From: a virus
Length of the DNA stretch: 43,071 nucleotides
IMG/VR virus record: IMGVR_UViG_3300017446_000007
Span: 1-43,071 of that record
Strand: one strand, 5' to 3'
This document shows positions 11,274 to 30,677 of this stretch, in pieces. Below the pieces are notes generated by a model. The model saw only the letters and a list, made by a program, of their open reading frames with translations. It had not been told where the DNA came from and did not search any database. Each line of letters begins with the position of its first letter. The first letter of the stretch is position 1. The translations under genes were made by a program, and so were the position numbers.

Positions 11274-11282
11274 ATACTAGGC
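11274..11282 (-). promoter_or_regulatory. GCCTAGTAT motif copy 1
   Basis: Exact 9-mer on the minus strand, 77 nt upstream of the tailspike ATG 11197. Confidence 0.5.
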
Positions 11283-11284
11283 AG

Positions 11285-11470
11285 ATGATCGTAGGTCTGC
11301 TCGTCATCATCTGTGTTTTGCTTGCGGGCATCTGGTTCGACATGGCCGCAAACGCCCGCGCGACAAGGCAGCTTATTATTTCAGCCAGTGACCTAAATAT
11401 CGAAAAACAGCAGGCGACCGAACGCCGTCTAGAAACGATCGAACACAAGATCCCTTCGCGCTTCGAATGA
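11285..11470 (+). CDS. Small N-terminal-TM protein on the opposite strand (P22 sieA/immI position)
   Basis: 61 aa in a locally AT-rich stretch. TATACT (11273-11278) lies 6 nt before the ATG, suggesting a leaderless mRNA. Convergent with the upstream ejection gene. Confidence 0.45.
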   Translation: MIVGLLVIICVLLAGIWFDMAANARATRQLIISASDLNIEKQQATERRLETIEHKIPSRFE

Positions 11471-11475
11471 AGCGA

Positions 11476-13797
11476 CTACCTCCCGATGTTGCTGCCCGTG
11501 ACAGTCAGGCCCGGGATAAGACCAGCAGTGGTGTCGATGCTACGCGAGTATGCGCCGATGCGCCGAGCCTCGGCAGCCTGAACCGCAGCGTTAGCCTCTT
11601 GAACAGCTTGGCGGAGGGCCGCAGGATCAGACTCGCTGAGCAGCGAAGCAATGCTTTGACGAACGCGCTGTCCGGCCTCACCGCGGCCGAACTTACCAGC
11701 TTCAACGGCTTCGCTGAGCAGCGACAGGGCCATGCCGCTGATACCACCGCCCTGCGCGCCCCTAACCGCGACGTTGAAGGCCGTTTCCTGCAATCCGGGG
11801 TCCATCGTCTGCGCATCCGCGGCTAGGCGCTCAGCGGTCGGCGAGCCTGTCGCGACGGCCCGGAATGTGTCATTGCCCGAGCGCTCAAGGCCAAGAGACG
11901 CCTCAAAGCGTGCCAGCCCTTCGTCGCCGCCGAACAATGTTTGCAGGGCGGCGCGCTTCGCAGGTGTGCCCAGAACAGCTCGCGCCTTGTCAGCGTCATC
12001 AACGCGGCCTTCTAACGACTTTGCAAGCGCCGATCGGTAGCCGAGCGCAAATTGCTCGCGGTCTGGATCAGAGAGTGAGCCGACTTTACGGGCTAGCTCC
12101 TCATCAGACCAGCGTAGAGCGTCGCGACCTTCTTCAAGAGCAGACCGCGCTGACGCAGGACCAGCATATGCTGATCGGGCCTCGGCATAGGCGGGATTAA
12201 GACGATCGACCTCGTTGACGAGGCTCGCTCGCACATCGTTGATGGCTCGACCGGCCTCGTCAAGAACCAGCTTGCCGGTGAGCGGGTTGCGACTGGGTTC
12301 AAGTAAATCATCTAGGCCACGCTTTACGTAATCCAGCGTTTGGGTGGTGTACCCATTCTGGGTCGCAGCCGTTCCCTCTGCTAGCCGGCCATCAAGAGCG
12401 CTGGTGGCGTCGGTTAGCCCAGCACGCGCCTGAAGCAGCGCCTCTCGTGAAGCATCTGTGTCCGAGCCGGCGGTACGCAACGCAAGACGATGCGCCTCCT
12501 GAGCAGCATCGAATGCGCTTTTGGCTTCAGCCTGTTTTTGGAAGAGGTCGAGGCGGACCGGATTAAGTACGACATCGCCGTTTTCATCCAGCGCGAAGCC
12601 CATCTCGGACGGATCGCGGCGTTCGTTTGCAGCGATCGTGCGAGCGCGACTCAGCGCTTGGCGCCCCGCAGGGGTCGTCAGGATCGCATCAAGCTCAGGC
12701 GTCGAAACGACCGGCGCTGCGTAGGCCCGCTCGTAAATGGGTGCCGCTGCCTGTCGCGCTTGAGCCTGAAGCTGGTCGGAAACCTCATAAGTGTTGGCGA
12801 CAGGACCAAGATCGCGCTCGATGAACCCTCGAACGCGGTCACCTTGCTGCTGCTGACGTTCGGTAACCGCGTTGCGAACGATCGTCCGCGATGGACCAGG
12901 CTGACGCGACACTGAGGCAGCGAGGGTGCGGGCATTCTCGCCCGTGTCGGCAAGCATGAATGGCACGCCAAGGTTCCGCGCCTCATCCATCATAGCGCCT
13001 GCGCTGGCGCCTGTGTTGGCGTCAGCAGCGATAGCCTTCCCAACGATCTCGCGCGCCAGCTCATCCTGCGATTTGCCGAGCAGGCGTGACGCTCCCGCGC
13101 GGAGATTTGTTGCGACCGACCCCGCGACCGGGACCACACCTCCTAGAGCGCCGCCTAACCCGCCTCCCAAAATGCTGCCAGTGATGCTAGTTTCGGTGTC
13201 GCGTCCACCACCAAAGCCAGCCAGCGCGCCACCTAGCACACCGACCTTCGCACCGGATTTGATCGCCGATAGCGCATTCGGCACGGCGCGAACTGCGCCG
13301 GCCGGGTTCATACCAACGAAGCCACCAAGGATCGTCGCGAGCGTACCTGCGATCGGCGAGGCCGACAGTGCATCATCCGCACGCTTACGCTCGGCATCAC
13401 GGGCGTCATAATACGCCTGCTTTGGGTCGAATTCGCCGGTGAAAGGCGACTTGACGACATTCACCAGTGCGTTGCCAATGCCGGCGATTTCATCAGAGAG
13501 CCCGTAGAGCGCGCCTTGATTGATAAGCGTGCCGATACCCGAAGGAGCGCCGATCCTCTCCTGCGCGTCATAGAGCCGCTGCGCGCCCGGCGACAAAGCG
13601 TTTTCCACCGGCGTGGGAGCGATCGTTGGCGCAGCCACGGGCTTCGCGACGACGGTTTGCCGGCCGACATACTTCGACCCCCGCTGGCGAAGCTGGTCCT
13701 GTGCGAACGAGATCAGCTCGTCATCCGTCGCGTCTTCCGGCCCTTCGACCGTCATCGCTTCGCCATCAGGCGTGGTGATCTTGTACTGACGGGCCAT
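11476..13797 (-). CDS. Ejection/internal virion protein (P22 gp16 position)
   Basis: 773 aa, Ala/Gly-rich with a glycine-zipper hydrophobic block (GGALAGFGGG...GGGLGGALGG). Call is by synteny. Confidence 0.55.
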   Translation of the reverse strand: MARQYKITTPDGEAMTVEGPEDATDDELISFAQDQLRQRGSKYVGRQTVVAKPVAAPTIAPTPVENALSPGAQRLYDAQERIGAPSGIGTLINQGALYGLSDEIAGIGNALVNVVKSPFTGEFDPKQAYYDARDAERKRADDALSASPIAGTLATILGGFVGMNPAGAVRAVPNALSAIKSGAKVGVLGGALAGFGGGRDTETSITGSILGGGLGGALGGVVPVAGSVATNLRAGASRLLGKSQDELAREIVGKAIAADANTGASAGAMMDEARNLGVPFMLADTGENARTLAASVSRQPGPSRTIVRNAVTERQQQQGDRVRGFIERDLGPVANTYEVSDQLQAQARQAAAPIYERAYAAPVVSTPELDAILTTPAGRQALSRARTIAANERRDPSEMGFALDENGDVVLNPVRLDLFQKQAEAKSAFDAAQEAHRLALRTAGSDTDASREALLQARAGLTDATSALDGRLAEGTAATQNGYTTQTLDYVKRGLDDLLEPSRNPLTGKLVLDEAGRAINDVRASLVNEVDRLNPAYAEARSAYAGPASARSALEEGRDALRWSDEELARKVGSLSDPDREQFALGYRSALAKSLEGRVDDADKARAVLGTPAKRAALQTLFGGDEGLARFEASLGLERSGNDTFRAVATGSPTAERLAADAQTMDPGLQETAFNVAVRGAQGGGISGMALSLLSEAVEAGKFGRGEAGQRVRQSIASLLSESDPAALRQAVQEANAAVQAAEARRIGAYSRSIDTTAGLIPGLTVTGSNIGR

Positions 13798-15110
13798 CAG
13801 CGGACCACCTTGAAGCCGTCGCGGCGGGCGGCGGGGGCGGGCTTGCCCGCAAGATCGCGGTACCCCGATCGTGTAGCGTTGATGAGATCTCGGTAACCCG
13901 CCAGCGTCTCAGCTAAACCCTCATCCGTTTGCGCGCGGCTAGGCTGGCCTGCTTCAGCAAGCCGACTCTCGTAATCCGACATCGCGCCCTCGCCTGGGAC
14001 GCGCGTAAGCTGTCGAATAAGTGGCGCTAGTTGGCGGATAGCCGCGTCGGCTGCGCTGTCTTTACCACTGATGCCACCGGGCAATCGGCCAGCGACCGGG
14101 CCGCGGTATTTTGCGGCTTTCAGTGCCTTCTCAACGCGGTTGAGCTGATTGTCGATGGCGTCGAGGGCTGTCAGTTTGGTTTTTGCGAGTGCGACCGTTG
14201 CCGGCTTCGGAGCTTCGCGACCGGCTTGAGCCATATCCTGCCCGCGCATTGACACAGCTTGGCCAGCAGCTGCGGTCGCGGCCGACATGTCTTGCCCGCG
14301 GCGCGTAGTCGCTGCGCTAATATCCTGACCACGACGTGCGGTAGACGCGCTGACGTCCTGCCCCCGCATCGTGACCTTTTGCCCGGCTTCGGAGCGTCGA
14401 TCAGCAATGATCTTGTCAACGCCGGCTCCGATGTTGACGAGCCCACGGATGTTATCGTCAGTCGGATCGAACGCGGCAATGTCATTCGCAGTCCAGCCCG
14501 CATCTTTTAGTAGAGGGGCGCTGCTGTCGATAAATGCCGCGCGTTCAGATACGGGAAGGTCAGAAGCAGCCAAGGCCACCGCCGCGCCTACTCCCATCCG
14601 GTGGGTGAACTGCTTCTGCTCGTTATCTGTCAGCTTTCCTACATGCTCTGTTAGGTCAGCCGCAAGTTTCGGGTCGTATTCGGCAAGGTCGGCGACAGTA
14701 GGCATTGGTGCTGCTGCCTGCTGGCGCGCACCTGTGACAACGATGTCGCCACTTGCGTCGGTTGGAGAGCCTACCAACGGAACGCTGGATGATGATGCCA
14801 CAGCGGGTGCCGCACCACCCAACGCATCGGGCGTTCCGCGCAGGATGTTGGCGTAAACCCTGTTGCCCTGCATCTGACGGTTGAGAGCCCCGACCTCGCG
14901 ACTGTTCTTCGCGGCGAGAGCTGCTGCTTGAGGGTTGGCAGCCCACAATGCCGCAGGGACAGGACCGCCGGGATTGGCGCCATAAGCGGCTAGTGCATCC
15001 TCCTGCACCTGCTGCTTGCGCTGCGTCCGCGCCGTCTCGAAACCCTGCGAGAACGCCGCGCCAGCATCAGGCGCGCCGCTCAGGATGCCCCAGTTGATCT
15101 GCAACGGCAT
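13797..15110 (-). CDS. Ejection/internal virion protein (P22 gp20 position)
   Basis: 437 aa. Contains RRGQD(V/I/M)SA repeats. Call is by synteny. Confidence 0.55.
   Translation of the reverse strand: MPLQINWGILSGAPDAGAAFSQGFETARTQRKQQVQEDALAAYGANPGGPVPAALWAANPQAAALAAKNSREVGALNRQMQGNRVYANILRGTPDALGGAAPAVASSSSVPLVGSPTDASGDIVVTGARQQAAAPMPTVADLAEYDPKLAADLTEHVGKLTDNEQKQFTHRMGVGAAVALAASDLPVSERAAFIDSSAPLLKDAGWTANDIAAFDPTDDNIRGLVNIGAGVDKIIADRRSEAGQKVTMRGQDVSASTARRGQDISAATTRRGQDMSAATAAAGQAVSMRGQDMAQAGREAPKPATVALAKTKLTALDAIDNQLNRVEKALKAAKYRGPVAGRLPGGISGKDSAADAAIRQLAPLIRQLTRVPGEGAMSDYESRLAEAGQPSRAQTDEGLAETLAGYRDLINATRSGYRDLAGKPAPAARRDGFKVVR
14232..14369 (-). repeat. Imperfect 33-nt (11-aa) tandem repeats encoding (R/M)RGQDxSAxT
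   Basis: RGQD cores at 14352-14369, 14319-14336 and 14286-14303 (33-nt period), a degenerate copy, then 14232-14249. Confidence 0.7.
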
Positions 15111-15235
15111 CAGCGCTTCTCCAACTCGGCAATGCGAGCCTTGATGGCGGCGACATTCTCGCTCAGCCCGGGGCGTCCCTCACGAACAGCCAGTTTCTCA
15201 CGCAGCGATGCAAGCTCCTGCTCTACATCAGCCAC
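15110..15235 (-). CDS. Micro-ORF, 41-aa coiled-coil-like peptide
   Basis: Fills the gap exactly. GTG 15235 overlaps the upstream stop and its TGA shares one nt with the next ATG. Sequence VADVEQELASLREKLAVREGRPGLSENVAAIKARIAELEKR. Confidence 0.3.
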   Translation of the reverse strand: MADVEQELASLREKLAVREGRPGLSENVAAIKARIAELEKR

Positions 15236-16001
15236 CGAACGGGTTCCTTCCGCCGAAGTAATTGAACGGGTTTTGCTGGATCATGCCGTAGCTGTTGGTC
15301 AGCGACCCGTAGCCTGGTGAGTTATACCCGCCCGGCATGCCCAGAGCTGAAGGCGTGGTGTTACCATAGCTGCTTTGCCCGAAATAGGTGCCCGCTGCGT
15401 TGGCGATCCCAGCCAAAGCGTTCTGCTGGGACTGAGCGCCGTACAGAGCCGCGTTGGCCTGCGCGCTGGCTGCTCCCTGATTGGAATTCGTGACCTGATT
15501 GACGTAGCTGGCACCCGAGCCGGTCACCGCGCCCAAGGCATTCAGCCCCGCTCCCTGCTGGTTACCGAGCATCCCGACATACTGCCCAAAATTCTGGTTG
15601 CTGTAGTCGGTGCCGTATTTGAGCAGCGCCTTCTGCGCGGCCCCGCTCTCCAGCGCGCCACGCGCGGCATATCCGGTGTTGATAGCGTTCTGGCCTTCGT
15701 TCAAGCCGGTCTGGTAGCCGGTCGATCCTCGCCAAGCCGCTAGCGCGTCCTGTGCCGCGCCCGCGTTGCCGCCCAGCCCTAGCAGGGCGTTGATTTGCGC
15801 GCCGGCCGCGTTGCCCCGATCAACGGTCGGCTGCGCCATGCCGACGTTCTGCTGATAGATGTTCTGCGCCAGCGCGCGATCAGCCGCGGCGGACTTAGCA
15901 GCGACATCGGCTGCCTTCTTAGCACCCTTACCGCCCGTGATCCCCGAGAACAGGCTTGCTCCCGCTGAGATCGCTGATGCTGCTACAAGGGGAGCTACCA
16001 T
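15228..16001 (-). CDS. Gly/Ala/Asn/Gln-rich ejection/internal virion protein (P22 gp7 position)
   Basis: 257 aa, low-complexity. GAGGAAG lies before ATG 16001. Confidence 0.55.
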   Translation of the reverse strand: MVAPLVAASAISAGASLFSGITGGKGAKKAADVAAKSAAADRALAQNIYQQNVGMAQPTVDRGNAAGAQINALLGLGGNAGAAQDALAAWRGSTGYQTGLNEGQNAINTGYAARGALESGAAQKALLKYGTDYSNQNFGQYVGMLGNQQGAGLNALGAVTGSGASYVNQVTNSNQGAASAQANAALYGAQSQQNALAGIANAAGTYFGQSSYGNTTPSALGMPGGYNSPGYGSLTNSYGMIQQNPFNYFGGRNPFGG

Positions 16002-16425
16002 TCTGCTTCCTCAGGACGAAGCGCTGCACTTCGCCCAACACGTCATGGAAGCCGATCCCGGCACACTGAAATCCAACTCTGCGGTTAAAGCAGAGGGCAG
16101 CGCGATGAATACTAGGCGTCTCCCCCCACAGCATGTCGGCGTGGTTGGCGAGCATGAACGCAGCCATTTCCTTTGCCGCCGCGATTGCCCGCGCACCTCT
16201 CACCTCAGGCAGGAACATGGTATGACATTGCCAGACGCTAGGCGCAGACCACTCGAACAATGCGCCACAAGCCTCGCCGTCTGTCAGCACGACATAGCTA
16301 TCTGGACGGTCAACGCAGGGGCCAAAATCCAACTTGCCCTTATGTCCAAGGTCGAAATGAGGCAGCACAGCCGGGTGATTGACGATGCGGTTGATGACCG
16401 CCGCATCAGTTTCCCTCCGGATCAA
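15928..16425 (-). CDS. Hypothetical protein in the P22 gp14 position (acetyltransferase-fold-like C-terminal half)
   Basis: 165 aa, ATGA overlap upstream. The last 74 nt overlap the next gene out of frame. Confidence 0.5.
   Translation of the reverse strand: MIRRETDAAVINRIVNHPAVLPHFDLGHKGKLDFGPCVDRPDSYVVLTDGEACGALFEWSAPSVWQCHTMFLPEVRGARAIAAAKEMAAFMLANHADMLWGETPSIHRAALCFNRRVGFQCAGIGFHDVLGEVQRFVLRKQNGSSPCSSISDLSGSKPVLGDHGR
16109..16117 (-). promoter_or_regulatory. GCCTAGTAT motif copy 2
   Basis: Exact 9-mer, 108 nt upstream of ATG 16001, inside CDS 15928-16425. Confidence 0.4.
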
Positions 16426-17039
16426 TCCAGTGCCTGACGCGGCGCGACGTAGCCGGGCCGGCGGGGGCCTTCACCACCATCCTCCGTACCCGTCGCTGGA
16501 ATGCGGACGGCGCCGACAACATGGAGATCACCGCTCTGGACCGGTGGTGTGGTGCCAACCAAGTACGTCACCGTGCCTCCCGAACGGTCGGGATCTTCGT
16601 AGGCGACGTAATCGGTATCGCCAGCCGCGGTCGCGGAGACGGTCCCGCCATTTACTGCAACACTGGTCCCGTCGCCGTAATAGCGGGTGTGAGCGATGAT
16701 CGTGATCGTCGCCGTCGTGGCTGACACGACACTTGATGGCTCAATATAGCTGTTTTGCAACGCTGTCTCGCGCTTCACGCTATCGGTTTGCTCCTGAGCC
16801 TGGCTGGCGGCTTCCTGCGCGGTCTGCGCGGCTTCCTGCGCCGTTTCTATAGCCCGCTGGGCTTGCTTCAGCGCCTCGTCAAGTTGATCAGTGATGCCGA
16901 GGATTTGCGCGATGGCGTTGAATACGCGCTCGATCTGCTCGGCAAACTGTTGCCAGTAGCGCGTAAACGACAATGTGGGTCGGCCGTCTGCATCCACGAT
17001 CGGCGCACCGGACAACAGGCGGGGCAGTTTTACAGCCAT
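16422..17039 (-). CDS. Tail needle/plug-like coiled-coil protein (P22 gp26 position)
   Basis: 205 aa. Central heptad-rich LDEALKQAQRAIETAQEAAQTAQEAASQAQEQ. Confidence 0.5.
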   Translation of the reverse strand: MAVKLPRLLSGAPIVDADGRPTLSFTRYWQQFAEQIERVFNAIAQILGITDQLDEALKQAQRAIETAQEAAQTAQEAASQAQEQTDSVKRETALQNSYIEPSSVVSATTATITIIAHTRYYGDGTSVAVNGGTVSATAAGDTDYVAYEDPDRSGGTVTYLVGTTPPVQSGDLHVVGAVRIPATGTEDGGEGPRRPGYVAPRQALD

Positions 17040-19304: not shown

Positions 19305-19315
19305 ACCGCCTCCTG

Positions 19316-19348: not shown

Positions 19349-19361
19349 CTTCCCCTGGGCT

Positions 19362-20258: not shown

Positions 20259-20272
20259 GTCTCAGCCCTCCC

Positions 20273-20848: not shown

Positions 20849-20860
20849 GACTGCGGTTCC

Positions 20861-22116: not shown

Positions 22117-22167
22117 CGGACCTCCTGCATCATCGCAGAAGGTGATGGATCAAGCCGGTATGCCTAA

Positions 22168-22176
22168 ATACTAGGC
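22168..22176 (-). promoter_or_regulatory. GCCTAGTAT motif copy 3
   Basis: Exact 9-mer in the 65-nt gap, 52 nt upstream of scaffold ATG 22116. Confidence 0.5.
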
Positions 22177-22181
22177 AAATG

Positions 22182-23432
22182 CTACGGGCGAGCTGGGACA
22201 GGGACAAGCCGCGGTTCGGCCTTCCACGTCACCCGGCTCACTTCCTTCATCTGGCGCCCATTGCCGAGGTCACCAGAGCTGCACGAGAGCAGCTTGTCGA
22301 TACAGTTCGCGATCCACATCGCCATCACGTCGTCGTCCCACGCGCCGAACCAGTCGGCGTGGATCGTCGAGCCCGCGGGCATGCGGGGCATCCCGGGCAT
22401 CTCGTCCGATGACAGATACCAGCTGTCCGCGCGCGCTTCGTCCACGGTGTACCATGCGCCCATCGTGAACGAAGGAATGACGTACGGGTGCGTCGCCGGG
22501 CACTTTAGGTAGCCCCACGACCCGTAGCCGGCGTCGGCGATGTGGTCGCGGTGGTTCGGGCTGTCGAGCCGCACGCCGTCCCAGCACGGCGGGGCGACAA
22601 TGATCCCGCCCAGCCGGTTGCCCGCGGGGCAGTTGGCCGCAGCCTCGGTGATCGTCTCGTAATGACCGGGCTTCGCGGTGGGGCCGTCGCAGTTGAAGTA
22701 GCCGCCCCCGGTCGCGGGCTTGCCGGTCATCGCGTCGTGGCCGAAGATGAAGCGCAGGCCGCGGGGCAGCGCGACGCACGCCTTGCCCTGACGCTGGCAC
22801 TCGGCGGCGTCCGCTGGCAGCCGCTTGTAATAGACGTTGATGAAGTCCGGCCGGACGACGTGGCCCTTGCCGTCGAGCATCGCCGGCATCCAGTATGCCG
22901 AGCGGTTCAAGACGTTGACGCAGGTGCTGTCGCCGGTCTTGCGCAGGCTGTCGTAGGTGCTGTTCGCGTTCGCCGCGGTGTTGCCGAACCACTGGTGCAG
23001 GTGGCTCTTGCCCGGCTGCTTCGGATAGACGAGCGGGTCGTCGTAGCTGACGGGCCCGGGGTTGCAGACGAACCGGAACGCGCCGACGGTATCCGGGCGG
23101 CCGGTCGGCGCGATCGCCCCCTTCTGCCCGCCGGTATAATCCTGCGTCCAGCCGATCAGCGAGGCGACATCCTCCTTCGTTGGGACGATCGCGGGCACCT
23201 TCGTGAAGTCGACGCCCAGCTCGGGCACCTCGATGTCGCCGACCGGCTTCGTGATCTTGCCTAGCGCGCGCAGATACTGCTCACGCCAGACCGGCCAGCT
23301 CTTCGCCACAGGCTCGCCCAGGGCCGACGCCACCGGCGGGGCGTCGCGCTTCAGCGTCGGCGTCTGGGCCGACACTGGCGCCGCGATGAAAGATGCGACC
23401 ACTGCCAATATGGTGCTAATCAGAATACGCAT
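22182..23432 (-). CDS. Secreted DUF1996-family protein
   Basis: 416 aa. Sec signal MRILISTILAVVASFIAAPVSA/QT. FRFVCNPGPVSYDDPLVYPKQPGKSHLHQWFGN matches the DUF1996 signature as recalled. Confidence 0.65.
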   Translation of the reverse strand: MRILISTILAVVASFIAAPVSAQTPTLKRDAPPVASALGEPVAKSWPVWREQYLRALGKITKPVGDIEVPELGVDFTKVPAIVPTKEDVASLIGWTQDYTGGQKGAIAPTGRPDTVGAFRFVCNPGPVSYDDPLVYPKQPGKSHLHQWFGNTAANANSTYDSLRKTGDSTCVNVLNRSAYWMPAMLDGKGHVVRPDFINVYYKRLPADAAECQRQGKACVALPRGLRFIFGHDAMTGKPATGGGYFNCDGPTAKPGHYETITEAAANCPAGNRLGGIIVAPPCWDGVRLDSPNHRDHIADAGYGSWGYLKCPATHPYVIPSFTMGAWYTVDEARADSWYLSSDEMPGMPRMPAGSTIHADWFGAWDDDVMAMWIANCIDKLLSCSSGDLGNGRQMKEVSRVTWKAEPRLVPVPARP

Positions 23433-23446
23433 CTCTCGACTTCCTG

Positions 23447-23452
23447 ATTATA
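23447..23452 (-). promoter_or_regulatory. Candidate -10 element for the DUF1996 gene
   Basis: Perfect TATAAT on the minus strand, 14 nt before ATG 23432. No convincing -35. A hairpin (23464-23481) lies just upstream. Confidence 0.35.
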
Positions 23453-23498
23453 GCTGAGAGCGACAGCCGCGGACACGGCTGCAACAGGGAGAGATTGG

Positions 23499-23678
23499 GT
23501 GTACGTGCCACGGGAACAGCTACGCGACATTCGCGTCGCCAAAGGCCAGATCGAAGCCGCCACGTCGGTAGATGAACTACGCGCCCCGCTGCTCGCGATA
23601 TGTCGCATCATCGAGCATGAACTCGCCGAGGATGTGGCTGATACCGACCTGATATTAGGTCGTCCGCGAGGCAGTTGA
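23499..23678 (+). CDS. Micro-ORF, 59 aa, opposite strand, divergent from the DUF1996 gene
   Basis: GTG lies 5 nt after GGGAGAG. Helical-looking VYVPREQLRDIRVAKGQIEAATSVDELRAPLLAICRIIEHELAEDVADTDLILGRPRGS. Confidence 0.35.
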   Translation: MYVPREQLRDIRVAKGQIEAATSVDELRAPLLAICRIIEHELAEDVADTDLILGRPRGS

Positions 23679-23685
23679 CCGGACA

Positions 23686-24861
23686 TCAAATGCCTCGCAA
23701 GCGGCGGAACAGCTCAGCGTAGGAAGCGGCCTCCAGACCATAGCCGAGCGCGGTCGGGTGAACGGTATCGCTGACCATGCCCGCAGCGCTCGATGCCGCG
23801 AACGAAACCCACGATGCGCGAACGTCAAGCACCGGAACGTCAGCCGCGAGCGCTGTTGCGATCGTTGCCGCGGCGTAGGCGTCCTGTTGCGGCGTAGCGC
23901 CGCTCGTCACGCTGTCGTAGATGGGTGTCGCTACGATCACGTCGCCCGACAGCTTGCCCTGCGCGATACCGGCCGCAAGGTTTGCCTGGAATACGCCGAT
24001 GTCGGTCGACTGACGCCAGTCGTTGATCGCCCAGTCACCGAGGATTGAGAGATCCGGTGCGATTGCTGTCCAAGCCTTCAGCGTCGAGGCGTTGGCGTCC
24101 GTGTCGTTGAGGAACTGTGCCGAGCGCTGCCCGCTGGCTCCCCAATTGAGCAAGCTGATTTCGCGGCGATTGCCTGCATCATCATAGGCCGTGACGCCGA
24201 CCAAACGAGGCGTTCCTGCCACCCAAGAGAGAGTGAGTGCATGCGTTCCAGAAGCACCTGCGCTGACAGTCGTCTTGGCGACTTGGATCGTGCCGCTGGT
24301 GGCGAGGTTCGTGGCTGCACCTCCATCCACCGCATACGAGAATGTATTGCCAGCTGCCCCATCACGCCACCAGATATCGAACTTGGTGACCGGTCCCTGC
24401 GGTGTGAATACGATCGTGCCTGCGGAACCGGCCCCGACAGCGAAGCCGTTGCCGCCGACCGTTGCGAAACTCGTCGGCGCTGCGCTGCCCGTGAACACCA
24501 GCCGCCCGTCAGCCGCTGCGATGGCGGCGCCCGTCTGCGCGCCGCCGTAACCTACCTTGTCGCCGAAGAAGTTGTTGGCTCCAGCCGGTATGCCCTGTGC
24601 CTGCAACATGCGGGCAAGCTGCATCGGCCACGAGTTGACTGCCTGCGTCGCCCCACCGCCGGTCGACTGTCCTGCTACGGTCGAAGGGCCGATGCACGCC
24701 ACAAGGGCGTTGCGGCTCGGGTTGGCCATCGCAGCACGGATGCGAAGCGTGTTCGACGGCTTCAGGTTGATGATGTTGACGCCGAGGTTGGCTGCCACAG
24801 CGTTGGAGGTCTTCGGCCCAGCGCTATTGAATTCCACGGCATCGAAGTTGGTAACGCCCAT
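23686..24861 (-). CDS. SGNH/GDSL-family hydrolase (esterase/deacetylase-like)
   Basis: 391 aa. Block I-like CIGPSTVAG, block III-like WAINDW, block V DTVHPT. GGGAG before the ATG. Confidence 0.6.
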   Translation of the reverse strand: MGVTNFDAVEFNSAGPKTSNAVAANLGVNIINLKPSNTLRIRAAMANPSRNALVACIGPSTVAGQSTGGGATQAVNSWPMQLARMLQAQGIPAGANNFFGDKVGYGGAQTGAAIAAADGRLVFTGSAAPTSFATVGGNGFAVGAGSAGTIVFTPQGPVTKFDIWWRDGAAGNTFSYAVDGGAATNLATSGTIQVAKTTVSAGASGTHALTLSWVAGTPRLVGVTAYDDAGNRREISLLNWGASGQRSAQFLNDTDANASTLKAWTAIAPDLSILGDWAINDWRQSTDIGVFQANLAAGIAQGKLSGDVIVATPIYDSVTSGATPQQDAYAAATIATALAADVPVLDVRASWVSFAASSAAGMVSDTVHPTALGYGLEAASYAELFRRLRGI

Positions 24862-24873
24862 GATCTAACTCCC

Positions 24874-25401
24874 CTACGAAGCAGGCAGAGCCAGAACGTC
24901 GAACGTGACGCCGGCTGCTGCGGTGGTGATGGGCGCGACGACAGCGCCAAGGATTGAGACGGTGACGCTCTGCGTCGTGAAGCACTTGATCGTGGCACCG
25001 GTGACGGTAACCGTACCAGCAACAGGGAAGCACAGCGGCGCACTCGCGGCGCTTGTCGACGTGACATAGGGCGTCACGGTCAGGCGCGGCGGACTGGGCA
25101 TCGCAGGCCACGCCACAGCGCCAGTGCCGCCCGTTGCAGTGACACCCTGCACTGTGCGGCTGATGCGCGGCTGCACGGCGTTCGCGAGCCGACACGCGTC
25201 GCCGCTGCCCGCAGCGCCCCCGACCGTCTCCATGGGCGGGATCGTGGCGCTAGGCTGGCATGCCGCCGCAGCAGCGTCAGCGGCTTGTTGCGCCTTCTGC
25301 GCGGCCGTTTGGACCTCCAGCTTGGTGGCGAGGTTCGTCGTATCGACACCAACTGGGTTAAGCGGCGTCACGACTTGCGCGAGAAGCAGCGCGGCGATCA
25401 T
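24874..25401 (-). CDS. Hypothetical protein, hydrophobic N-terminus, fibre-like coiled segment plus beta-rich C-terminus
   Basis: 175 aa, ATGA overlap upstream. Confidence 0.55.
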   Translation of the reverse strand: MIAALLLAQVVTPLNPVGVDTTNLATKLEVQTAAQKAQQAADAAAAACQPSATIPPMETVGGAAGSGDACRLANAVQPRISRTVQGVTATGGTGAVAWPAMPSPPRLTVTPYVTSTSAASAPLCFPVAGTVTVTGATIKCFTTQSVTVSILGAVVAPITTAAAGVTFDVLALPAS

Positions 25402-25781
25402 TGGATATCGCCCGCGAGGTATGCCGTCGCGCTTGCCGTCTTCGTGAAACAGCCAGTGGACGAGAACACGACCACCACGCCATTATCGAACCGGAGCGGT
25501 GACCCGCGGAAGTTCAGATCCAGCCCGGTATTGGCCGCGATCGGGAGGCATCGAGCCGGGGTAACAGCACCATCAGCCGGCACCGTCGTGGCATCGAACA
25601 ACATCACATAGCCAGCCGATGCACCAGTGGTGATGCTCAGGCCGGCGAGGTTACTCGTGCCAGCGCGGAGTACGAAGCCAGCCGACACGGCGGTCGTCGC
25701 GCGGGTCTTCGACAGAGTTTGTGCCGACACGGGAGCGGCGAGACAGAATACGGCAAGCGCCGCCAGCAGGTAGCACTTCAT
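25398..25781 (-). CDS. Secreted hypothetical protein
   Basis: 127 aa from ATG 25781 (ATGA overlap). Sec signal MKCYLLAALAVFCLAAPVSA/QT shares AAPVSAQT with the DUF1996 protein. Confidence 0.6.
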   Translation of the reverse strand: MKCYLLAALAVFCLAAPVSAQTLSKTRATTAVSAGFVLRAGTSNLAGLSITTGASAGYVMLFDATTVPADGAVTPARCLPIAANTGLDLNFRGSPLRFDNGVVVVFSSTGCFTKTASATAYLAGDIQ

Positions 25782-26122
25782 GCCGCCTCTCCATGGAAGA
25801 TCGCCGCCACGTCCTTGTCGCGGCACAGCCGGTAGGTTTTGCCATCGGCACCCTCGATCAACGAGCCGGCATAGCGGCCGAACAGCACCACATCGCCCGG
25901 CTTGCCGCGATGATCGTCACCCTCGGCGAACGTCCACGCCAGCGGCGACTGCGCCACGATCCGCCCGCGCTGCGTCGCGACCTCATCCGTTTCGCGCTTG
26001 GCCTGCGGGATGTAGATGCCGCCGGCCGTGCGCTCCTCGGTCGCCTCAGGGGCGATCAGCACGTAGTATTCGACCGGACGCAGGCCGGGGTTGCAGTCAT
26101 TCAGGCTGGGGATCGTTCCCAT
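25778..26122 (-). CDS. GroES/Cpn10-like co-chaperonin
   Basis: 114 aa. LRPVEYYVLIAPE..EERTAGGIYIP...GRIVA...PGDVVLFGRYAG...DKDVAAI aligns by eye with the GroES pattern. Confidence 0.65.
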   Translation of the reverse strand: MGTIPSLNDCNPGLRPVEYYVLIAPEATEERTAGGIYIPQAKRETDEVATQRGRIVAQSPLAWTFAEGDDHRGKPGDVVLFGRYAGSLIEGADGKTYRLCRDKDVAAIFHGEAA

Positions 26123-26348
26123 GAGCGCTCATCCAATCTTCGTAGGTTGTGTCGGGGATGGCGCGGTACGCATCCGCGCGAGTGCGAAGCTCCGAGAGCA
26201 AAACCGGGTCAGGCGGCTCTCCGTTGTCGAAGGTGCGCGTGATCCACTCATCACGCTGCAAGCCGGCGAAGGAGGCCATCGCTCCCATAACCCAGCGCGT
26301 CACCGGGTCCGTTCTCCATGCCTGGAACTCCTCCTGCGAGGGGGTCAA
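26097..26348 (-). CDS. Hypothetical protein
   Basis: 83 aa. TTG start 5 nt after GGGAGG. Overlaps the last 98 nt of the portal gene out of frame. Confidence 0.5.
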   Translation of the reverse strand: MTPSQEEFQAWRTDPVTRWVMGAMASFAGLQRDEWITRTFDNGEPPDPVLLSELRTRADAYRAIPDTTYEDWMSAHGNDPQPE

Positions 26349-28332
26349 CGGCGCCTCCCATCATCATGCCGGCTTCCGCGGCTGTGCGGATGGCCTGCGC
26401 TTGGTCCTTCTGGGCCGAAGCGCTGTTGCGCTCGGTTTCGGATGCAGTCTTGGCCAGCTCGGCCTGGGCGCCAGCCGCGGCCATCGGGTCAGGCTGCGGG
26501 GGCGGCGCGAACAGCTCGTCCGCATCCTCGACATCAGCCGCCTCAAGCACGCGCTGGTGAACCTTGCGCTGGTCGTAGAGCGGGTTGTTTGCCGCCACGG
26601 ACATAACGAACTGCGCACGCGCCAGCTTCTGCATCCGCGTCACGCTGGTGGGGTCAGACACGGGCCGAATGTCGAAATCGGACGCGTTGAAATCCGCCTC
26701 GAAGTCGGCCGACTGATCGTCAAGCACCTCAAGGTAATCAGCCGCAGCCTTCTCGCCGCCGAAGCGCGAGATATTCGAGTAGAGGAGAGCAAACTCCTCA
26801 CGCAGCGAGCGATAGATGCGCTTGTAGATCGCGGTGAAGACCTGCAATCCCTGCTCGATCAACGCCAGCGTGGTGCCGACCTGCCCGTTGTTCGATGCTT
26901 CACCGGTGATGACATCCTTCACGCTGGAGATGTCGCGAGCCGCCGACAGCATCATGTCGAGAATGGACACCATCACCTGCGAAGGGCCGGGGAAGGTGCG
27001 CTCGTAAATGCCGTTTCGCAGCTGGTCACCGGTCGCGCCGTTGACGGTCTTGTACTCGCCCGGCGCGAAGCGCAGCGACGACGTGCGGCCCTGACCCTGC
27101 AACCGGATGCCGGAAGCGATAAACCCGCCCCCCGCTACCTGAGCATGACCCGCGTCAATGAGCTGGTTGATCGACGTGTTGACGACATCGCCGATTTGCT
27201 CAAGCAGATGCCCGAGCCCGATGTCGTAGAACTTGCCCTGTGGATGCGGGAAGAAGCTATACTTGATGTAGAACTGTTGGCGCTTGATCGACAGCACGTC
27301 GCCGTTGTCGTTCATGGCGACATCGCGCGGGCTGTAATTCGCCTCGATGCGCAGCACCTTCGCTGTCGAGTGGTCAACCGTGACGATGTACGGCTCTTGG
27401 ATGCCGTCACCATCCACGTCGATCAAGCGGTGTTGTTCCAAGAGCAGACGGGGCGATTGGTCGTCATCACCCTCAGGCAGCAATTCAGTGGTGCGGTATT
27501 CGCCTAGCCGCATCCGCTCTTGGATCTGATATGGGAAGACGTCCGGCACTTCTTCGGTGAGCCGCGGCGTCGTATCGCAGGACCGCGCGCCCGAAGGCAC
27601 GATGATGCGCAGGGCGGAGACGAGCGCGGCACGCTGCTCCTGCTTGGCCACATCGTACCAGACCTTGCGGAAAGCGCAGCCGTCGATCGGAAGCTGAAGC
27701 AACAGTGCGTCTGTGTCGCTCTCCCAATCTTCCATGCGGTAGAACAGGACGGTGTTGAGGTAGTCGCGCACGCGCTGAGCCCGAGCGGCCTTCGCGCCCG
27801 GCGGCACAGCCCACACCATCTGCGGCTGTCCGTCCGGCCCCATGATCGGACCCTGCGGCCCCATCATCGGCAAAGGGATCATACCTTGCGGCGTCTGGAT
27901 CATCACCGGCCGGCCCTTGTCGGCACCGACGACCTTAACGCTGACTGCCTCGTCGCCCTTCACGATCGCGGGATAGGCGCGAGCGTTGAACTGGGTCGCG
28001 GCCACCGTCAGCAACGGGTAGTGAACGTTGGACGCCCGGTTCCAGGGATAGTCCTTCTGCCCCTTGGCTTCCTGCGCCGCCGACCGCTGCGCCTTCTCGA
28101 CCACTCGCTTCCAGTCAGCGCGGTCGGCATCATCCTTCGTGTAGTCGGCAACCACGTCCGCTCCCAGCCGGGACAGATCACCTTCACTCCACGCCGCGGA
28201 GATGTCGCCTACACTGTTGGCCAGCGAGAGCAGCTTTTCGATCGCAGGCGGCTCCCCCAAAACGACATCGACCGGCTCGCCTGCGAAAGCGTCCGGTTCG
28301 ATCATCAGCGCGTCTTGGGGGAGCGTCGCCAT
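26251..28332 (-). CDS. Portal protein
   Basis: 693 aa, shortly downstream of the terminase genes. Size and position fit; family not verified. Confidence 0.7.
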   Translation of the reverse strand: MATLPQDALMIEPDAFAGEPVDVVLGEPPAIEKLLSLANSVGDISAAWSEGDLSRLGADVVADYTKDDADRADWKRVVEKAQRSAAQEAKGQKDYPWNRASNVHYPLLTVAATQFNARAYPAIVKGDEAVSVKVVGADKGRPVMIQTPQGMIPLPMMGPQGPIMGPDGQPQMVWAVPPGAKAARAQRVRDYLNTVLFYRMEDWESDTDALLLQLPIDGCAFRKVWYDVAKQEQRAALVSALRIIVPSGARSCDTTPRLTEEVPDVFPYQIQERMRLGEYRTTELLPEGDDDQSPRLLLEQHRLIDVDGDGIQEPYIVTVDHSTAKVLRIEANYSPRDVAMNDNGDVLSIKRQQFYIKYSFFPHPQGKFYDIGLGHLLEQIGDVVNTSINQLIDAGHAQVAGGGFIASGIRLQGQGRTSSLRFAPGEYKTVNGATGDQLRNGIYERTFPGPSQVMVSILDMMLSAARDISSVKDVITGEASNNGQVGTTLALIEQGLQVFTAIYKRIYRSLREEFALLYSNISRFGGEKAAADYLEVLDDQSADFEADFNASDFDIRPVSDPTSVTRMQKLARAQFVMSVAANNPLYDQRKVHQRVLEAADVEDADELFAPPPQPDPMAAAGAQAELAKTASETERNSASAQKDQAQAIRTAAEAGMMMGGAVDPLAGGVPGMENGPGDALGYGSDGLLRRLAA

Positions 28333-28339
28333 CAGGCGA

Positions 28340-28549
28340 TCACTCGTCGCCCTTGGCTTCGTCAGCCTTTTTCGGCTTGGCAGTGAAAGTGCCAGCGATC
28401 AGCGTACTGTCGCCAGTGGCCAGCGCTTCCTTGATCGCAGCCACGTCAGCTTCGAGCGCGTCGATACGATCGCCCTGCGTCGGAGCCTTCGCCTCAGGCT
28501 TCTTCTCGGTCGTCATGAACCCGTCTCCTGAATGGACGGGTTCGGACAT
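28340..28549 (-). CDS. Small acidic hypothetical protein
   Basis: 69-aa ORF between terminase and portal. Confidence 0.5.
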   Translation of the reverse strand: MSEPVHSGDGFMTTEKKPEAKAPTQGDRIDALEADVAAIKEALATGDSTLIAGTFTAKPKKADEAKGDE

Positions 28550-28570
28550 TAGGCAGGTTCGGCGGGGATA

Positions 28571-28579
28571 ATACTAGGC
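28571..28579 (-). promoter_or_regulatory. GCCTAGTAT motif copy 4
   Basis: Exact 9-mer in the 31-nt gap after the terminase stop, 22 nt upstream of ATG 28549. Confidence 0.5.
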
Positions 28580-28580
28580 G

Positions 28581-29315
28581 TTAGTACCCAGTGGTTTCGT
28601 AGCGATCAGACGGACGAGCCCGCTCATCGTCATACCGCTCCACCGGCTTTGTCATTGCACGACCCATGCCGGACATCACCAGATAGCGCTCAGCGTCCAT
28701 GAGGTGATCGCGCTCTTTGACGATCTTACCCTTCTCGTCTCGGCGATATAGTCGGCGCTCCGATCGCAGGTTTTGAAGCGTGGAGAACGCGCGGAGCCGG
28801 CGAGACTGTAAGCGACGATAGACCGCGAAGATGCCGGCCTCGACCTCATTATTGGCGAGATGCAGGTCGAGCCCCATCGTCGCGTACTCGTCCCGTAACG
28901 CCCGCCCGTCGACCTGACTGCGGCCCCGCGAGGCAGGATCGATTACCCCTGGGATCCAGTCGCCCCGTGCGCGGATCGCCTCGGCGTGGACCTGCGGAGG
29001 GGCCTCGCCGACGTAGTATTCGTCGTACTCGTAGATCGTATCTGTCTCGCGGTCCCAAGCGCCCCAAATGACAGCCGTGCGGTTCCATCCGACGTCAAGC
29101 GCATAGGCTCGTGGCCAGTATGCCGGGATCTGGAACGGCTCAACGATCCAGTCGTCTTCGCTCACCGGGTAGATCACCCCTGAGCCCAGCGCCGGTATGC
29201 CCTTGGATCGCGCATCGCGCTGGTGTGGGGGGATCGACGCCATCAACTCGGCTTTGTCGTTCGCCGAGAGATGGGGCACGTCGTCCCAATCGATCTGGAT
29301 GGACCACTTGCTCAC
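28581..29315 (-). CDS. Terminase large subunit, nuclease (C-terminal) part
   Basis: 244 aa. YALDVGWNRTAVIW...IYEYDEY...ERDHLMDAERY nuclease-domain signature. GTG start in a GTGA overlap. Confidence 0.8.
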   Translation of the reverse strand: MSKWSIQIDWDDVPHLSANDKAELMASIPPHQRDARSKGIPALGSGVIYPVSEDDWIVEPFQIPAYWPRAYALDVGWNRTAVIWGAWDRETDTIYEYDEYYVGEAPPQVHAEAIRARGDWIPGVIDPASRGRSQVDGRALRDEYATMGLDLHLANNEVEAGIFAVYRRLQSRRLRAFSTLQNLRSERRLYRRDEKGKIVKERDHLMDAERYLVMSGMGRAMTKPVERYDDERARPSDRYETTGY

Positions 29316-30004
29316 GCGACAGGTGCCAGATTAGGCAGAAACGACAGCGCAACGTCGGTCAGGCCAGACAGCGGTGTGAAGGTGGCGATCACCATGCCGC
29401 GCGTCGTCATCGTGCGGATCAGCGCCTCGGTGTAAATGTCCATTGGCGGCTCCTCGTCCAGCCAGATGCCGTCGCGCTCGGTGCCCTGCCACTTGGCGCG
29501 GCCCTGATCGTAGCTACGAAACTGGCACACGCTGTTGCCGCCGCTGACGTGTCGAACGGTGCCAATGTCGATCAGCCCCGGCACACCCGATGCCGTCGTC
29601 ATGCCGAGGATCGTGTCGCGCGGGATCATGCCGGTGCCGCGATCCTCCACCGGGCCGAACAGCTTCCGACAAGGCACGTCGCGTGTCGTGGTAGAGGTGT
29701 CGCCGCCGCACAGCCAGTTGGTCGGGTGGTCAAAGCGATAGCCTGGCCACCAGTCGGGATACAGCCCCGTCAGGTGCAAGGTGACCTCGTAGGCTCCGAT
29801 ACCCTCGCTCTTGCCGACGCGGTTGGCAGCGACCGCAGCGCGCTCACGGTGCTGGAGGCCAGCCGCGAAAAACTGCATATGCTTTCCGTACAGCTCGCGG
29901 CGCAACGGGCCTTCATCAGGGTAATAAGTCCATAGCCGGCGACCAGCTTGGCGGCGTTCCTTCTCTTCGAGCAACGCCAGCAATTCGAGCTTATCCGCGA
30001 TCAC
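29312..30004 (-). CDS. Terminase large subunit, ATPase (N-terminal) part
   Basis: 230 aa. Walker A AANRVGKSEG, Walker B GIWLDEEP, coupling motif ATFTP. Confidence 0.8.
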   Translation of the reverse strand: MIADKLELLALLEEKERRQAGRRLWTYYPDEGPLRRELYGKHMQFFAAGLQHRERAAVAANRVGKSEGIGAYEVTLHLTGLYPDWWPGYRFDHPTNWLCGGDTSTTTRDVPCRKLFGPVEDRGTGMIPRDTILGMTTASGVPGLIDIGTVRHVSGGNSVCQFRSYDQGRAKWQGTERDGIWLDEEPPMDIYTEALIRTMTTRGMVIATFTPLSGLTDVALSFLPNLAPVA

Positions 30005-30402
30005 CCCAGCGCCTTCAGCTTGGAAGCGATGCGGGCATCCAGCATGTCGTCGGATAGCTGCTGGATAGGCTGGTTGCCGGACGTCAGATCGACCTTATCG
30101 CCATAGCGTTTGGGGTGCAGCTTCGACAGATACCAACGCTCAGCGTCGAAGGCCAAGCGCCCCCGCTGCGGGTCAGTAGCCTCTTTGGCTGCCTCGACGG
30201 CACGATCAGCCCGAGCATCGAACCCTACCTCGCGTGCGCGCGCGATAGCGGCGGCAAACTCAGGGTCATCGTTCGCCCATCTCTCCACGGTGCGACGATC
30301 AGGCATTCGCTCATCACCGGAGATTGTGCGCAGACTGTCCCCGTCTTCTAAGCGCTCAAGGATTTCCTCTCGCACCTCGGGTCCAAAACGGCTCTCGATC
30401 AC
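30001..30402 (-). CDS. Terminase small subunit
   Basis: 133 aa. HTH-type N-terminus (SLRTISGDERMPDRRTVERWANDDPEF) and RWYLSKLHPKRYGDK motif. ATGA overlaps. Confidence 0.65.
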   Translation of the reverse strand: MIESRFGPEVREEILERLEDGDSLRTISGDERMPDRRTVERWANDDPEFAAAIARAREVGFDARADRAVEAAKEATDPQRGRLAFDAERWYLSKLHPKRYGDKVDLTSGNQPIQQLSDDMLDARIASKLKALG

Positions 30403-30677
30403 AAGTCTCGTCCCATCTTGATCTTCGTCGTGTCCGCCTCGCTGGGCAGGCCGAAGCGGATGCGTGGCGTGTTCCCGGAGCCCCGCCCGCCGCGGTACTC
30501 GCCGAGCGTCAGGAGCCCAGCCGCCTCGGCTTGCTTCACGTAGCGGCGCACCGTCCCGTCATGCTCGATACCTAGCTCATGCCGGATCATGGAATAACTA
30601 GGCGCGCGGCCTTGCTGAGCGACAACACGCTGGCAGAAGTCGACTACCTGGCTCATGCGAGAGACACGCGCTGCCAT
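30399..30677 (-). CDS. Winged-helix DNA-binding protein (LexA-N-terminal-like)
   Basis: 92 aa from ATG 30677, 5 nt after GGGGAG. GRAPSYSMIRHELGIEHDGTVRRYVKQAEAAGLL. Confidence 0.5.
   Translation of the reverse strand: MAARVSRMSQVVDFCQRVVAQQGRAPSYSMIRHELGIEHDGTVRRYVKQAEAAGLLTLGEYRGGRGSGNTPRIRFGLPSEADTTKIKMGRDL
30594..30603 (-). promoter_or_regulatory. GCCTAGTTAT variant of the motif
   Basis: One-base-insertion variant, 192 nt upstream of the small terminase ATG, inside a CDS. Confidence 0.3.

Follow-up and report, generated by a model that had tools for sequence, protein, structure and literature searches.

Results

Organization of the genome and of the repeated word

The window analyzed here is the whole of a 43,071-nucleotide (nt) stretch of viral DNA (IMG/VR record IMGVR_UViG_3300017446_000007), and the element under study is a short word, GCCTAGTAT, hereafter the box, that recurs ahead of the late gene blocks of this phage. 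Nucleotides 1-123 of the window are an exact repeat of nucleotides 42949-43071, and the assembly is therefore circular, representing the complete genome, 42,948 bp in length, of a temperate podovirus. Its relatives are Sphingomonas prophages, such as those found in S. melonis AS2.3 and Sphingomonas sp. Leaf32. A megablast search of the late region against 50,697 phage records gave no match, and no close relative was found among deposited phages. The minus strand holds one gene array that runs from about 35.0 kb down to about 6.8 kb. The array opens with genes for a GapR-like protein, RusA, an O-like replication protein, a 92-amino-acid (aa) winged-helix protein, terS, and TerL as two open reading frames (ORFs). 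It continues with a small pre-portal gene, an SU10-type portal, Cpn10, accessory genes, a scaffold-like gene and the major capsid protein, and it closes with adaptor and head-closure proteins, ejection proteins and the tailspike. The positions of the boxes, and of the genes and predicted elements associated with them, are collected in Table 1.

The preliminary description of this DNA had reported four exact copies of the word on the strand of the late genes and none in reverse. A direct count gave the same result: the copies lie at 11274-11282, 16109-16117, 22168-22176 and 28571-28579, all on the minus strand, with 0 in the other orientation. Fewer than one copy had been expected; the expected count was 0.06 over 100 dinucleotide-preserving shuffles, and 0/100 shuffles reached 4. 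When all 9-mers of the window were ranked for over-representation against an order-3 Markov background, GCCTAGTAT came first (Poisson p ~1e-8), so that the enrichment, which the same description had proposed to verify by k-mer counting, holds against both backgrounds. The rough base composition given there, about 0.32 for each of G and C and 0.18 for each of A and T, agrees with the computed values of 31-32% and 18.5-18.7%, respectively. The avoidance of CTAG was also borne out, with 37 occurrences in the window against 147 expected from base composition, an under-representation of about four-fold. One-mismatch copies of the 9-mer, or of the 8-mer, were not enriched. A scan for consensus promoters and terminators between 11 and 31 kb gave no more hits than in shuffled sequences, and none at the boxes on the minus strand; a literature search on the motif strings and on late promoters of Sphingomonas prophages gave nothing relevant.

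Table 1. Boxes, predicted promoter and leader elements, and associated genes in the window
Feature	Position	Strand	Remarks
Class A box (..ACG-CCTAGTAT-T)	28570-28583	minus	Exact 9-mer; upstream of small pre-portal gene
Class A -10-like element, predicted (CCTAATGTC, with A+29, T+30, C+33)	28545-28553	minus	Positional conservation, 46 sites
Class A hairpin, GAACCCGTC...GACGGGTTC	28517-28543	minus	Alignment and consensus fold; overlaps pre-portal Shine-Dalgarno sequence
Class B box (TTG-CCTAGTAT-T)	22167-22180	minus	65-nt gap upstream of 266-aa scaffold-like gene
Class B -10-like element, predicted (ATCCATCAC)	22142-22150	minus	Site alignment
Class B hairpin, anti-Shine-Dalgarno arm CCTTCTGC (22135-22142) and Shine-Dalgarno arm GCAGGAGG (22121-22128)	within 22121-22150	minus	
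Class C box (ACG-CCTAGTAT-T)	16108-16121	minus	In coding sequence of 165-aa gene 15928-16425
Class D box (CTG-CCTAGTAT-A)	11273-11286	minus	Upstream of tailspike gene (ATG 11197)
Class D -10-like element, predicted (CCGCATAGC)	11248-11256	minus	
Class D conserved leader, GATCGGCCCGGATGGCGCC	within 11198-11256	minus	Starts at predicted start G 11240
92-aa winged-helix protein gene, LexA DNA-binding-domain-like	30399-30677	minus	Last gene before terS; candidate box reader
Near-copy of box with one extra T (GCCTAGTTAT)	30594-30603	minus	Inside winged-helix gene; encodes A-P-S-Y
61-aa hydrophobic membrane-protein gene	11285-11470	plus	Antisense to late genes; 2 nt from class D box
CI-type repressor gene, HTH_3 and S24 peptidase domains	35013-35729	plus	
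cro-like gene	34832-35035	minus	

Conservation of the box in related prophages

Related loci, designated here by L numbers, were gathered via their portal, ejection, head-closure and winged-helix proteins. In 394 kb of these loci CCTA[CG]TAT occurs 21 times in the forward orientation and 0 times in reverse. The copies fall into four orthologous classes: A ahead of the pre-portal gene, B ahead of the scaffold-like gene, C within the 165-aa gene, ahead of the ejection genes, and D ahead of the tailspike gene. The motif is thus conserved in related Sphingomonas prophages, a point on which the preliminary description had asked for a check, and its strand specificity and its placement ahead of late gene blocks, both claimed there, hold as well. 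The flanks of the boxes are otherwise scrambled between relatives, and the adjoining genes sometimes differ.

The generalized element in the relatives reads (A)AnCG-CCTA[G/C]TAT-T, and each genome uses one variant at all its sites. The G-type, CCTAGTAT, is found in the window, L001 with L026, L005, L006 and L034-L037. The C-type, CCTACTAT, is found in L003/L029, L002 with L030, L004 with L032, L010, L031 and L042. The third variant, GCCCACTATT, is restricted to L038 and gives CACTAT at both L038 sites. A position that is fixed within genomes and variable between them points to a genome-specific reader of the box.

The class A box starts 1 nt past the stop codon of the TerL C-terminal ORF and has orthologous copies in 12 related loci, where a variable 16-nt stretch is followed by CCTAAT, GCTAAT, GTTAAT, CCGCAT or CATATT. 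The start of the pre-portal gene had been placed at 28549, 22 nt after the box. An ATG at 28516 is preceded by a Shine-Dalgarno (SD) sequence and agrees with all homologues; the gene most likely starts there, and the box therefore lies about 55 nt upstream of the start. For class B, which has orthologous copies in 10 related loci, the distance is just as regular: the first C of the box is 59 nt from the ATG of the scaffold-like gene (22116) in the window, and the start codon is 58-60 nt away in all of them.

The class C site qualifies the earlier statement that three of the copies occupy true intergenic gaps, because it is coding: the box reads T-P-S-I in the frame of the conserved 165-aa gene. 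It stands 115 nt upstream of the ejection-protein ATG (16001), with TTTAAC after it at 16084-16089. The box is kept in L029 and L030-L032, where the encoded residues vary (TPSI, TPTI, PLLL) and the register shifts by 2 nt. Since the class C box survives both the residue changes and the register shift, it is the DNA word and not the peptide that is under selection. A plus-strand ORF across the same site (15859-16437) was rejected, because substitutions follow the minus-strand frame.

At the class D site the box is followed by a conserved leader, GAUCGGCCCGGAUGGCGCC (GGCCGGAUGGC in distant elements), which begins at or near the predicted transcription start (window 11198-11240) and which also occurs after the box in L025, L030, L032, L039-L041, L043, L049 and L050. 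This leader precedes either the tailspike N-terminal gene or a gene for a tail protein of about 100 aa, and its 5' part is able to pair with codons 2-3 (GGCUGA). We considered the leader as a structured RNA and discarded the idea: folding z-scores were unremarkable in most cases and there was no Rfam match. On the opposite strand, where the class D box reads TATACT as its reverse complement, the ATG of the 61-aa membrane-protein gene comes 7 nt after this hexamer. The preliminary description had offered an antisense, leaderless promoter as another reading of two of the copies. This reading holds at the class D site only, where the gene is real because its differences from L025 in the first 14 codons are all synonymous; the plus-strand ORF at the class B site (22179-22412) was rejected as a gene, being conserved neither in L005 nor in L025. 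The 61-aa gene is conserved and placed, in the manner of a moron, between the ejection and tailspike genes.

Geometry of the sites

We aligned 46 non-redundant sites on the box, taking the first C of CCTAsTAT as position 0. Upstream, the box extends to A at -5 (36/46), A at -4, C or T at -2 and G at -1; downstream, it extends to T at +8 (40/46), the class D box of the window being among the few with A at this position. A spacer of variable sequence but fixed length, 20 nt, with almost no information comes next, and beyond it conservation resumes at A+29 (37/46), T+30 (29/46), C+33 (33/46) and a purine at +41 (37/46). Over the 46 sites the box stands at a fixed distance from a -10-like element that has no -35 consensus, as would be expected of an activator-dependent promoter whose activator site overlaps the -35 position (class II-like).

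The preliminary description had compared TAGTAT with a -10 hexamer and had noted that no -35 was shared. The absence of a shared -35 was confirmed by search and by alignment: neither a -35 nor a TG extension was found for TAsTAT as a -10, the information being about 0 from -40 to -6 outside the box's own extension. The comparison with a -10 hexamer was not supported. GCC, not TGn, precedes TAsTAT; positions +13 to +16, where transcription would begin if the box were the -10, are pyrimidine-rich and mostly C; the invariant T -12 and A -11 of a -10 element are not preserved throughout, L038 having CACTAT at both sites; and the reading gives no account of the fixed A+29, T+30, C+33 and purine +41. 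An activator site at about -45 to -32 followed by a -10-like element would fit the alignment better than TAGTAT as the -10. With this numbering, A+29 becomes -11 and C+33 becomes -7; in GCtANAWC, the -10 consensus of Caulobacter sigma-73 (PMC13004042), these two positions are likewise held by A and by the last C.

Start codons of classes A and B lie 56-62 nt from the box (24 sites). Together with a transcription start at +40/+41, this would therefore give leaders of about 18-20 nt. In the window the predicted start is near 28537-28538 for class A and would be the G at 22134, directly 3' of the anti-SD arm, for class B. In four loci of unrelated organization (L039, L041, L049 and L050), the ATG of the winged-helix gene, the candidate regulator, is found exactly at +40 from a box and lacks an SD sequence, an arrangement that fits a leaderless mRNA from the predicted start.

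Predicted hairpins over the ribosome-binding sites

In classes A and B the SD sequence is the 3' arm of a predicted hairpin, and the matching 5' arm is placed after the -10-like element and ahead of the predicted start. The class A predicted start falls within the 5' arm, and the class B arm ends one base before the start. Counterpart hairpins are formed by CCCCTCGC/GCGAGGGG in L005 and by CCTTCGTG/CACGAGGGG in L038. We computed the mean unpaired probability of the ribosome-binding region at 25 sites: it was about 0.3 in long transcripts versus about 0.55 in transcripts from +41. Moreover, 73.8% of cells were paired in the class B helix, as compared with 41-58% in slid controls, and three pairs change on both sides, while the sequence of the class A helix scarcely varies. 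Because the arm that masks the ribosome-binding site is upstream of the predicted start, read-through transcripts would be poorly translated.

The winged-helix protein and its association with the box

The 92-aa winged-helix protein is basic (pI 10.25). In the window and several relatives, the stop codon of its gene overlaps the start of terS; in L034, 120 nt separate the two. We found 30 homologues, all unnamed or 'hypothetical' except one with a UniRef name citing the LexA DNA-binding domain. The Pfam family LexA_DNA_bind (PF01726) matched 3/4 members scanned at 13.8-20.4 bits, under the cut-off of 23.7, and one homologue has a precomputed PF01726 match that is marked weak. For the winged-helix protein Pfam gave weak HTH_29, HTH_36 and LexA_DNA_bind matches and none else, PHROGs profiles gave nothing, and the best matches of a phmmer search of the PDB were to LexA (E 0.5-0.7). 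The AlphaFold model (pLDDT 68) has helices at residues 7-22, 28-35 and 40-52, with a wing and a tail of low confidence. In a Foldseek search, 7 of the top 8 matches were E. coli LexA (3jso, 3jsp, 1jhh, 1jhf, 1lea, 3k3r; E 0.017-0.1, TMq 0.55-0.61), the LexA-DNA complexes 3jso and 3jsp being the top ones (E 0.017, TMq 0.58). Weakly but consistently, the modeled structure and the profile matches point to a LexA-type winged-helix fold.

The gene for this protein is present in every box-bearing relative, whatever the terminase type, and it is absent from distant relatives that have no box. The composite motif CC[TC]A[CG]TAT[TA]-N20-A occurs 31 times forward and 4 times in reverse in 361 kb of loci with the gene, and 0 times in 379 kb of loci without it. 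All 4 reverse matches are in loci with divergent promoter regions (L039, L040, L043, L049, L050); in these the winged-helix gene occupies a divergent intergenic region, and the boxes point in both directions. Between the boxes, some of the divergent regions also hold a palindromic CCTAsTAGG, and L043 has two boxes back to back (AATAGTAGGC and GCCTACATTA). Distant homologues with another recognition helix and without the C-terminal tail are not accompanied by a box. A metagenome scan with a small protein alignment gave four loci. All G-type genomes share the recognition-helix sequence RRYV[KR]Q, and the other proteins differ.

In L041 the boxes flank the winged-helix gene within a chromosomal island. 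This locus (9961-10350; Sphingomonadales-like metagenome-assembled genome GCA_942647945.1) encodes an 88-aa homologue; one box is 40 nt before the ATG and the other is at the 3' end of the gene, followed by the class D leader. The island also carries a serine recombinase gene, an HTH and Peptidase_M78 gene and a RelA_SpoT gene, and the same switch may here be in use by a satellite or island.

The preliminary description had listed a variant of the word with a one-base insertion as a further upstream site. The variant exists, but it lies inside the coding sequence of the winged-helix gene rather than in a free upstream position. This near-copy, GCCTAGTTATTC, is written in the rare codons CCT-AGT-TAT in 8/8 distinct G-type sequences and in 0/9 others, which mostly use CCC or CCG, then AGC, TCC or TCG, then TAC. 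Such codon retention suggests some function; that it might be an autoregulatory site is our guess.

Other features of the genome

The immunity region contains divergent CI-type and cro-like genes. Its operators are palindromic, of the form GTGGGA-N4-TCCCAC, and the early promoters resemble the ordinary sigma-70 type (TTGCAT-N17-TATAAG and TTGACG-N17-CATAAA), in contrast to the late sites linked to the box. The words GTGGGA(A)ATATCCCAC and GAAATATCCCAC are repeated at 35051-35096, 36056-36100, 980-989 and 36988-36997; they border the two divergent genes, overlap the sigma-70-like promoters and are probably the immunity operators. The cro-like gene appears to be nearly leaderless (TATAAG-N8-ATG).

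TerL (28581-30004, minus strand) is encoded by two overlapping ORFs, one of 230 aa (Terminase_6N, ATPase) and then one of 244 aa (the nuclease half). A split TerL was also called in L034, L035, L037, L038 and L042, L035 having an additional 85-aa ORF between the halves, and L036 has one 494-aa ORF in its place. The two halves may truly be separate, or a programmed frameshift may lie behind the split. The gene for the Cpn10 (GroES-like) co-chaperonin (25778-26122, minus strand) follows the portal gene, and the same placement was called in L034-L038 and L042. The head module carries two inserted accessory genes (22182-23432 and 23686-24861, both on the minus strand), and most relatives are without both. 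They encode a DUF1996 protein, with an unusually high third-position GC of 0.90, and a GDSL-lipase-like protein. Upstream of the DUF1996 gene is a small hairpin, CGACCTAATATCAGGTCG, which contains the one-mismatch word CCTAATAT at 23652. No tRNA genes were found in the window, and the Rfam 15 covariance models at gathering score gave 0 matches across its whole length.

Two further observations concern the relatives. In the C-type genomes L002, L003, L004 and L010, the TerL stop codon is followed, ahead of the class A box and 20-50 nt from it, by an inverted repeat, (G)TGTCCGA-N9-12-TCGGACA(C); G-type genomes are without it. The repeat may form a terminator-like stem or serve as a second site for a protein. 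L019 is a distant relative that has neither the winged-helix gene nor the box. It carries near-perfect sigma-54-type sequences, TTGGCACG(A/C)CCCTTGCA, at 11467-11483 and 14079-14095. One is located within the portal gene, in its 3' portion, and the other ahead of the scaffold homologue, so that promoters of another class seem to occupy the same internal positions. A sigma-54 reading of the window sites was rejected, since TGGCAC-N5-TTGC is absent from window-type genomes and present in the distant L019 only.

Discussion

We asked what a word repeated on one strand, at four places in a single gene array, may do for the phage. The explanation that we consider fairly probable is that the boxes are sites for the winged-helix protein, that they replace the -35 element at four internal late promoters, and that the choice of start also unmasks the ribosome-binding site. 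The 9-mer would be the core of an asymmetric DNA site of about 14 bp, (A)A-n-C-G-CCTA[G/C]TAT-T, standing in for the -35 element and spanning about -45 to -32. A weak -10-like element, A(-11)-T-n-n-C(-7), would lie about 20 nt downstream, and the first transcribed base would be a purine, about 40-41 nt away as counted from the box's first C. The LexA DNA-binding-domain-like protein would recognize the box. Made as the last gene of the early rightward operon, directly before terS, it would recruit the host RNA polymerase to the four promoters and raise the transcription of the pre-portal/portal, scaffold/capsid/connector, ejection-protein and tailspike blocks. Having no box upstream, the terminase genes would depend on read-through alone. 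The leader of box-dependent transcripts would be open and short, about 18-20 nt. What is observed is the motif, together with its conservation, geometry and co-occurrence with the protein; these observations suggest a late control circuit of a familiar phage kind, built from previously undescribed parts. Among the roles that the preliminary description had proposed, activator-dependent late promoters and binding sites for the winged-helix protein would best fit the comparative data.

Several points weigh against this explanation. Orthologous sites are not independent of one another, and much of the co-occurrence falls in a single phage clade. We found no simple recognition-helix code for the G versus C variant; indeed, RRYVKQ proteins accompany both variants (L041, L043). 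The structural model of the protein is only moderate (pLDDT 68), and the LexA-type matches are under formal thresholds. The -10-like element is weak: it has no T at -12 and it matches poorly at class C and at some class D sites. The covariation of the hairpins is modest, 42/500 shuffles reaching the observed score. Finally, from a site at -40 to -32 the bound protein might repress and not activate.

The last point leads to the competing explanations. According to one, which we judge unlikely, TAGTAT, TACTAT or CACTAT is itself the -10 of -10-only late promoters, used by the host RNA polymerase with a phage factor in the style of T4 gp55 or phiEco32 gp36. Transcription would then start about 7 nt after the box, and the leaders, 45-100 nt long, would contain the hairpins. 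TAsTAT does retain A at its second and T at its sixth position, the upstream region is without a shared -35, and the portal and adaptor belong to SU10-type Pfam families; SU10 is a phiEco32-like phage, and that group uses a single-element promoter. However, the L038 variant has C for the first T, the region where such transcripts would begin is pyrimidine-rich, and no sigma-like or RNA polymerase gene was found among the proteins scanned. Moreover, a promoter made of the box alone leaves two regularities unexplained, namely the fixed positions A+29, T+30, C+33 and purine +41, and the regulator ATG that stands at exactly +40 without an SD sequence.

That the winged-helix protein is instead a repressor or roadblock, acting in the style of a LexA operator or of an L5 stoperator and damping the late genes together with its own, seems to us no likelier than a -10-only promoter and perhaps slightly less so. 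Its fold resembles the LexA DNA-binding domain; the sites are asymmetric, in a single orientation and often near stop codons; they border the protein's own gene, which is consistent with autoregulation, and a near-copy lies within its own coding sequence. A repressor is at odds with the position of the gene, last before terS, which is that of a late activator, and with the promoters themselves, which are without a -35 of their own and would need help to fire. The prophage also already has a CI-type repressor (HTH_3 and S24 peptidase domains) with other operators, and the distance of the box is fixed to the downstream gene and not to the upstream stop codon. Least probable in our estimation is an element acting at the RNA level. 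GCCUAsUAUU would then be either processed, as a site of the RNase E type, or bound by a protein, and would serve to segment and stabilize the long late transcript. An A/U-rich island within a GC-rich transcript, strand-specific and upstream of structured leaders, would suit such an element, and the preliminary description had named RNA processing and antitermination among its options. Neither accounts for the back-to-back, both-orientation copies in divergent promoter regions near the regulator; in addition, the partner element is at a fixed 20-nt distance, the co-occurring protein is of a DNA-binding type, and no Rfam family matches in the window.

If the boxes do act as -35 replacements for the winged-helix protein, the consequences reach beyond this genome. 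Late-gene control is known in detail for a few model phages, but in the temperate phages of Alphaproteobacteria it has hardly been worked out. The circuit would be compact and easily tested, consisting of one 92-aa protein and one 10-14-bp box with three natural specificity variants. It would account for different expression levels of terminase and structural genes within a single co-directional gene array, and the box could be used to annotate late promoters across a group of Sphingomonas prophages. It would also provide orthogonal activator-promoter pairs for sphingomonad engineering. Experiments may be feasible if Sphingomonas melonis AS2.3, a sequenced strain that carries one of the relatives as a prophage, is available. 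A more far-reaching proposal, which we hold to be doubtful though worth stating, is that a stand-alone 92-aa LexA-type domain acts as a monomeric -35 replacement and represents a new family of late activators in Alphaproteobacteria, with a genome-specific, co-evolving box of 10-14 bp, hairpin gating that would keep the structural genes untranslated on early read-through RNA, and a portable cassette. The presence of the cassette in unrelated phages and in the chromosomal island of L041 raises the possibility that satellites or islands listen to the late signal of a helper phage.

The proposed promoters can be compared with several known systems. At the middle promoters of phage T4, a MotA box centered near -30 replaces the -35 element; MotA, a double-wing protein, needs the co-activator AsiA. 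The likeness lies in an asymmetric 9-10-bp box, in a phage protein that would take the place of the -35, and in a fixed distance to the -10. In contrast, the box described here would occupy about -45 to -32, no AsiA-like partner was identified, and the protein would be a LexA-type winged helix. In mycobacteriophage L5, the stoperators are numerous asymmetric sites, all in one orientation relative to transcription and located in short gaps within the structural operon; the immunity repressor binds them, and they have the sequence of its operator. Our boxes resemble them as asymmetric, one-orientation copies in short intergenic gaps of a structural operon, but they stand at a fixed distance from the downstream start codon. 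Moreover, this is not a stoperator system, because the CI-type immunity repressor has palindromic operators that differ from the box. With the N-terminal domain of LexA (PF01726; 1lea, 3jso) the protein would share a three-helix winged-helix core with a G-x-P-P-[ST] turn. It differs in having, within its 92 aa, no S24 peptidase/dimerization domain and a conserved C-terminal tail, GGRG...RIRLG...IKMGRDL, in using an asymmetric single site and not a palindromic SOS box, and in scores that stay under the family thresholds.

The position of the gene recalls the Ltr superfamily (RinA, ArpU and others), the late transcriptional regulators of temperate Gram-positive siphoviruses, which act on one late promoter through a repeat region that they bind ahead of terS (PMC3753634, PMC3152322). 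Like them, the winged-helix protein is small and basic, is encoded last in the early cluster just before terS, and is proposed to activate the morphogenetic genes through a cognate DNA element. Unlike them, it belongs to a podovirus of an alphaproteobacterial host, no sequence relationship was detected (Pfam, PHROGs), and there is no box between the regulator gene and terS or upstream of the two; instead, four dispersed single boxes are found downstream of TerL. As for the hairpins, the closest parallel is found in the T4 genes e, I-TevI and soc, where a late promoter is embedded in a hairpin that sequesters the ribosome-binding site: long early transcripts can mask the site, and transcripts from the late promoter, being without the 5' arm, are translatable (PMC3014915). 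As in gene e and I-TevI, the 5' arm of the masking hairpin would here lie upstream of the predicted start. If this holds, the phage would be a second, independent case of what gene e does, with a ribosome-binding site exposed through the choice of transcription start. The arrangement proposed here, deduced from geometry and folding, would differ from that of T4 in using another type of promoter and in serving whole structural blocks and not single genes.

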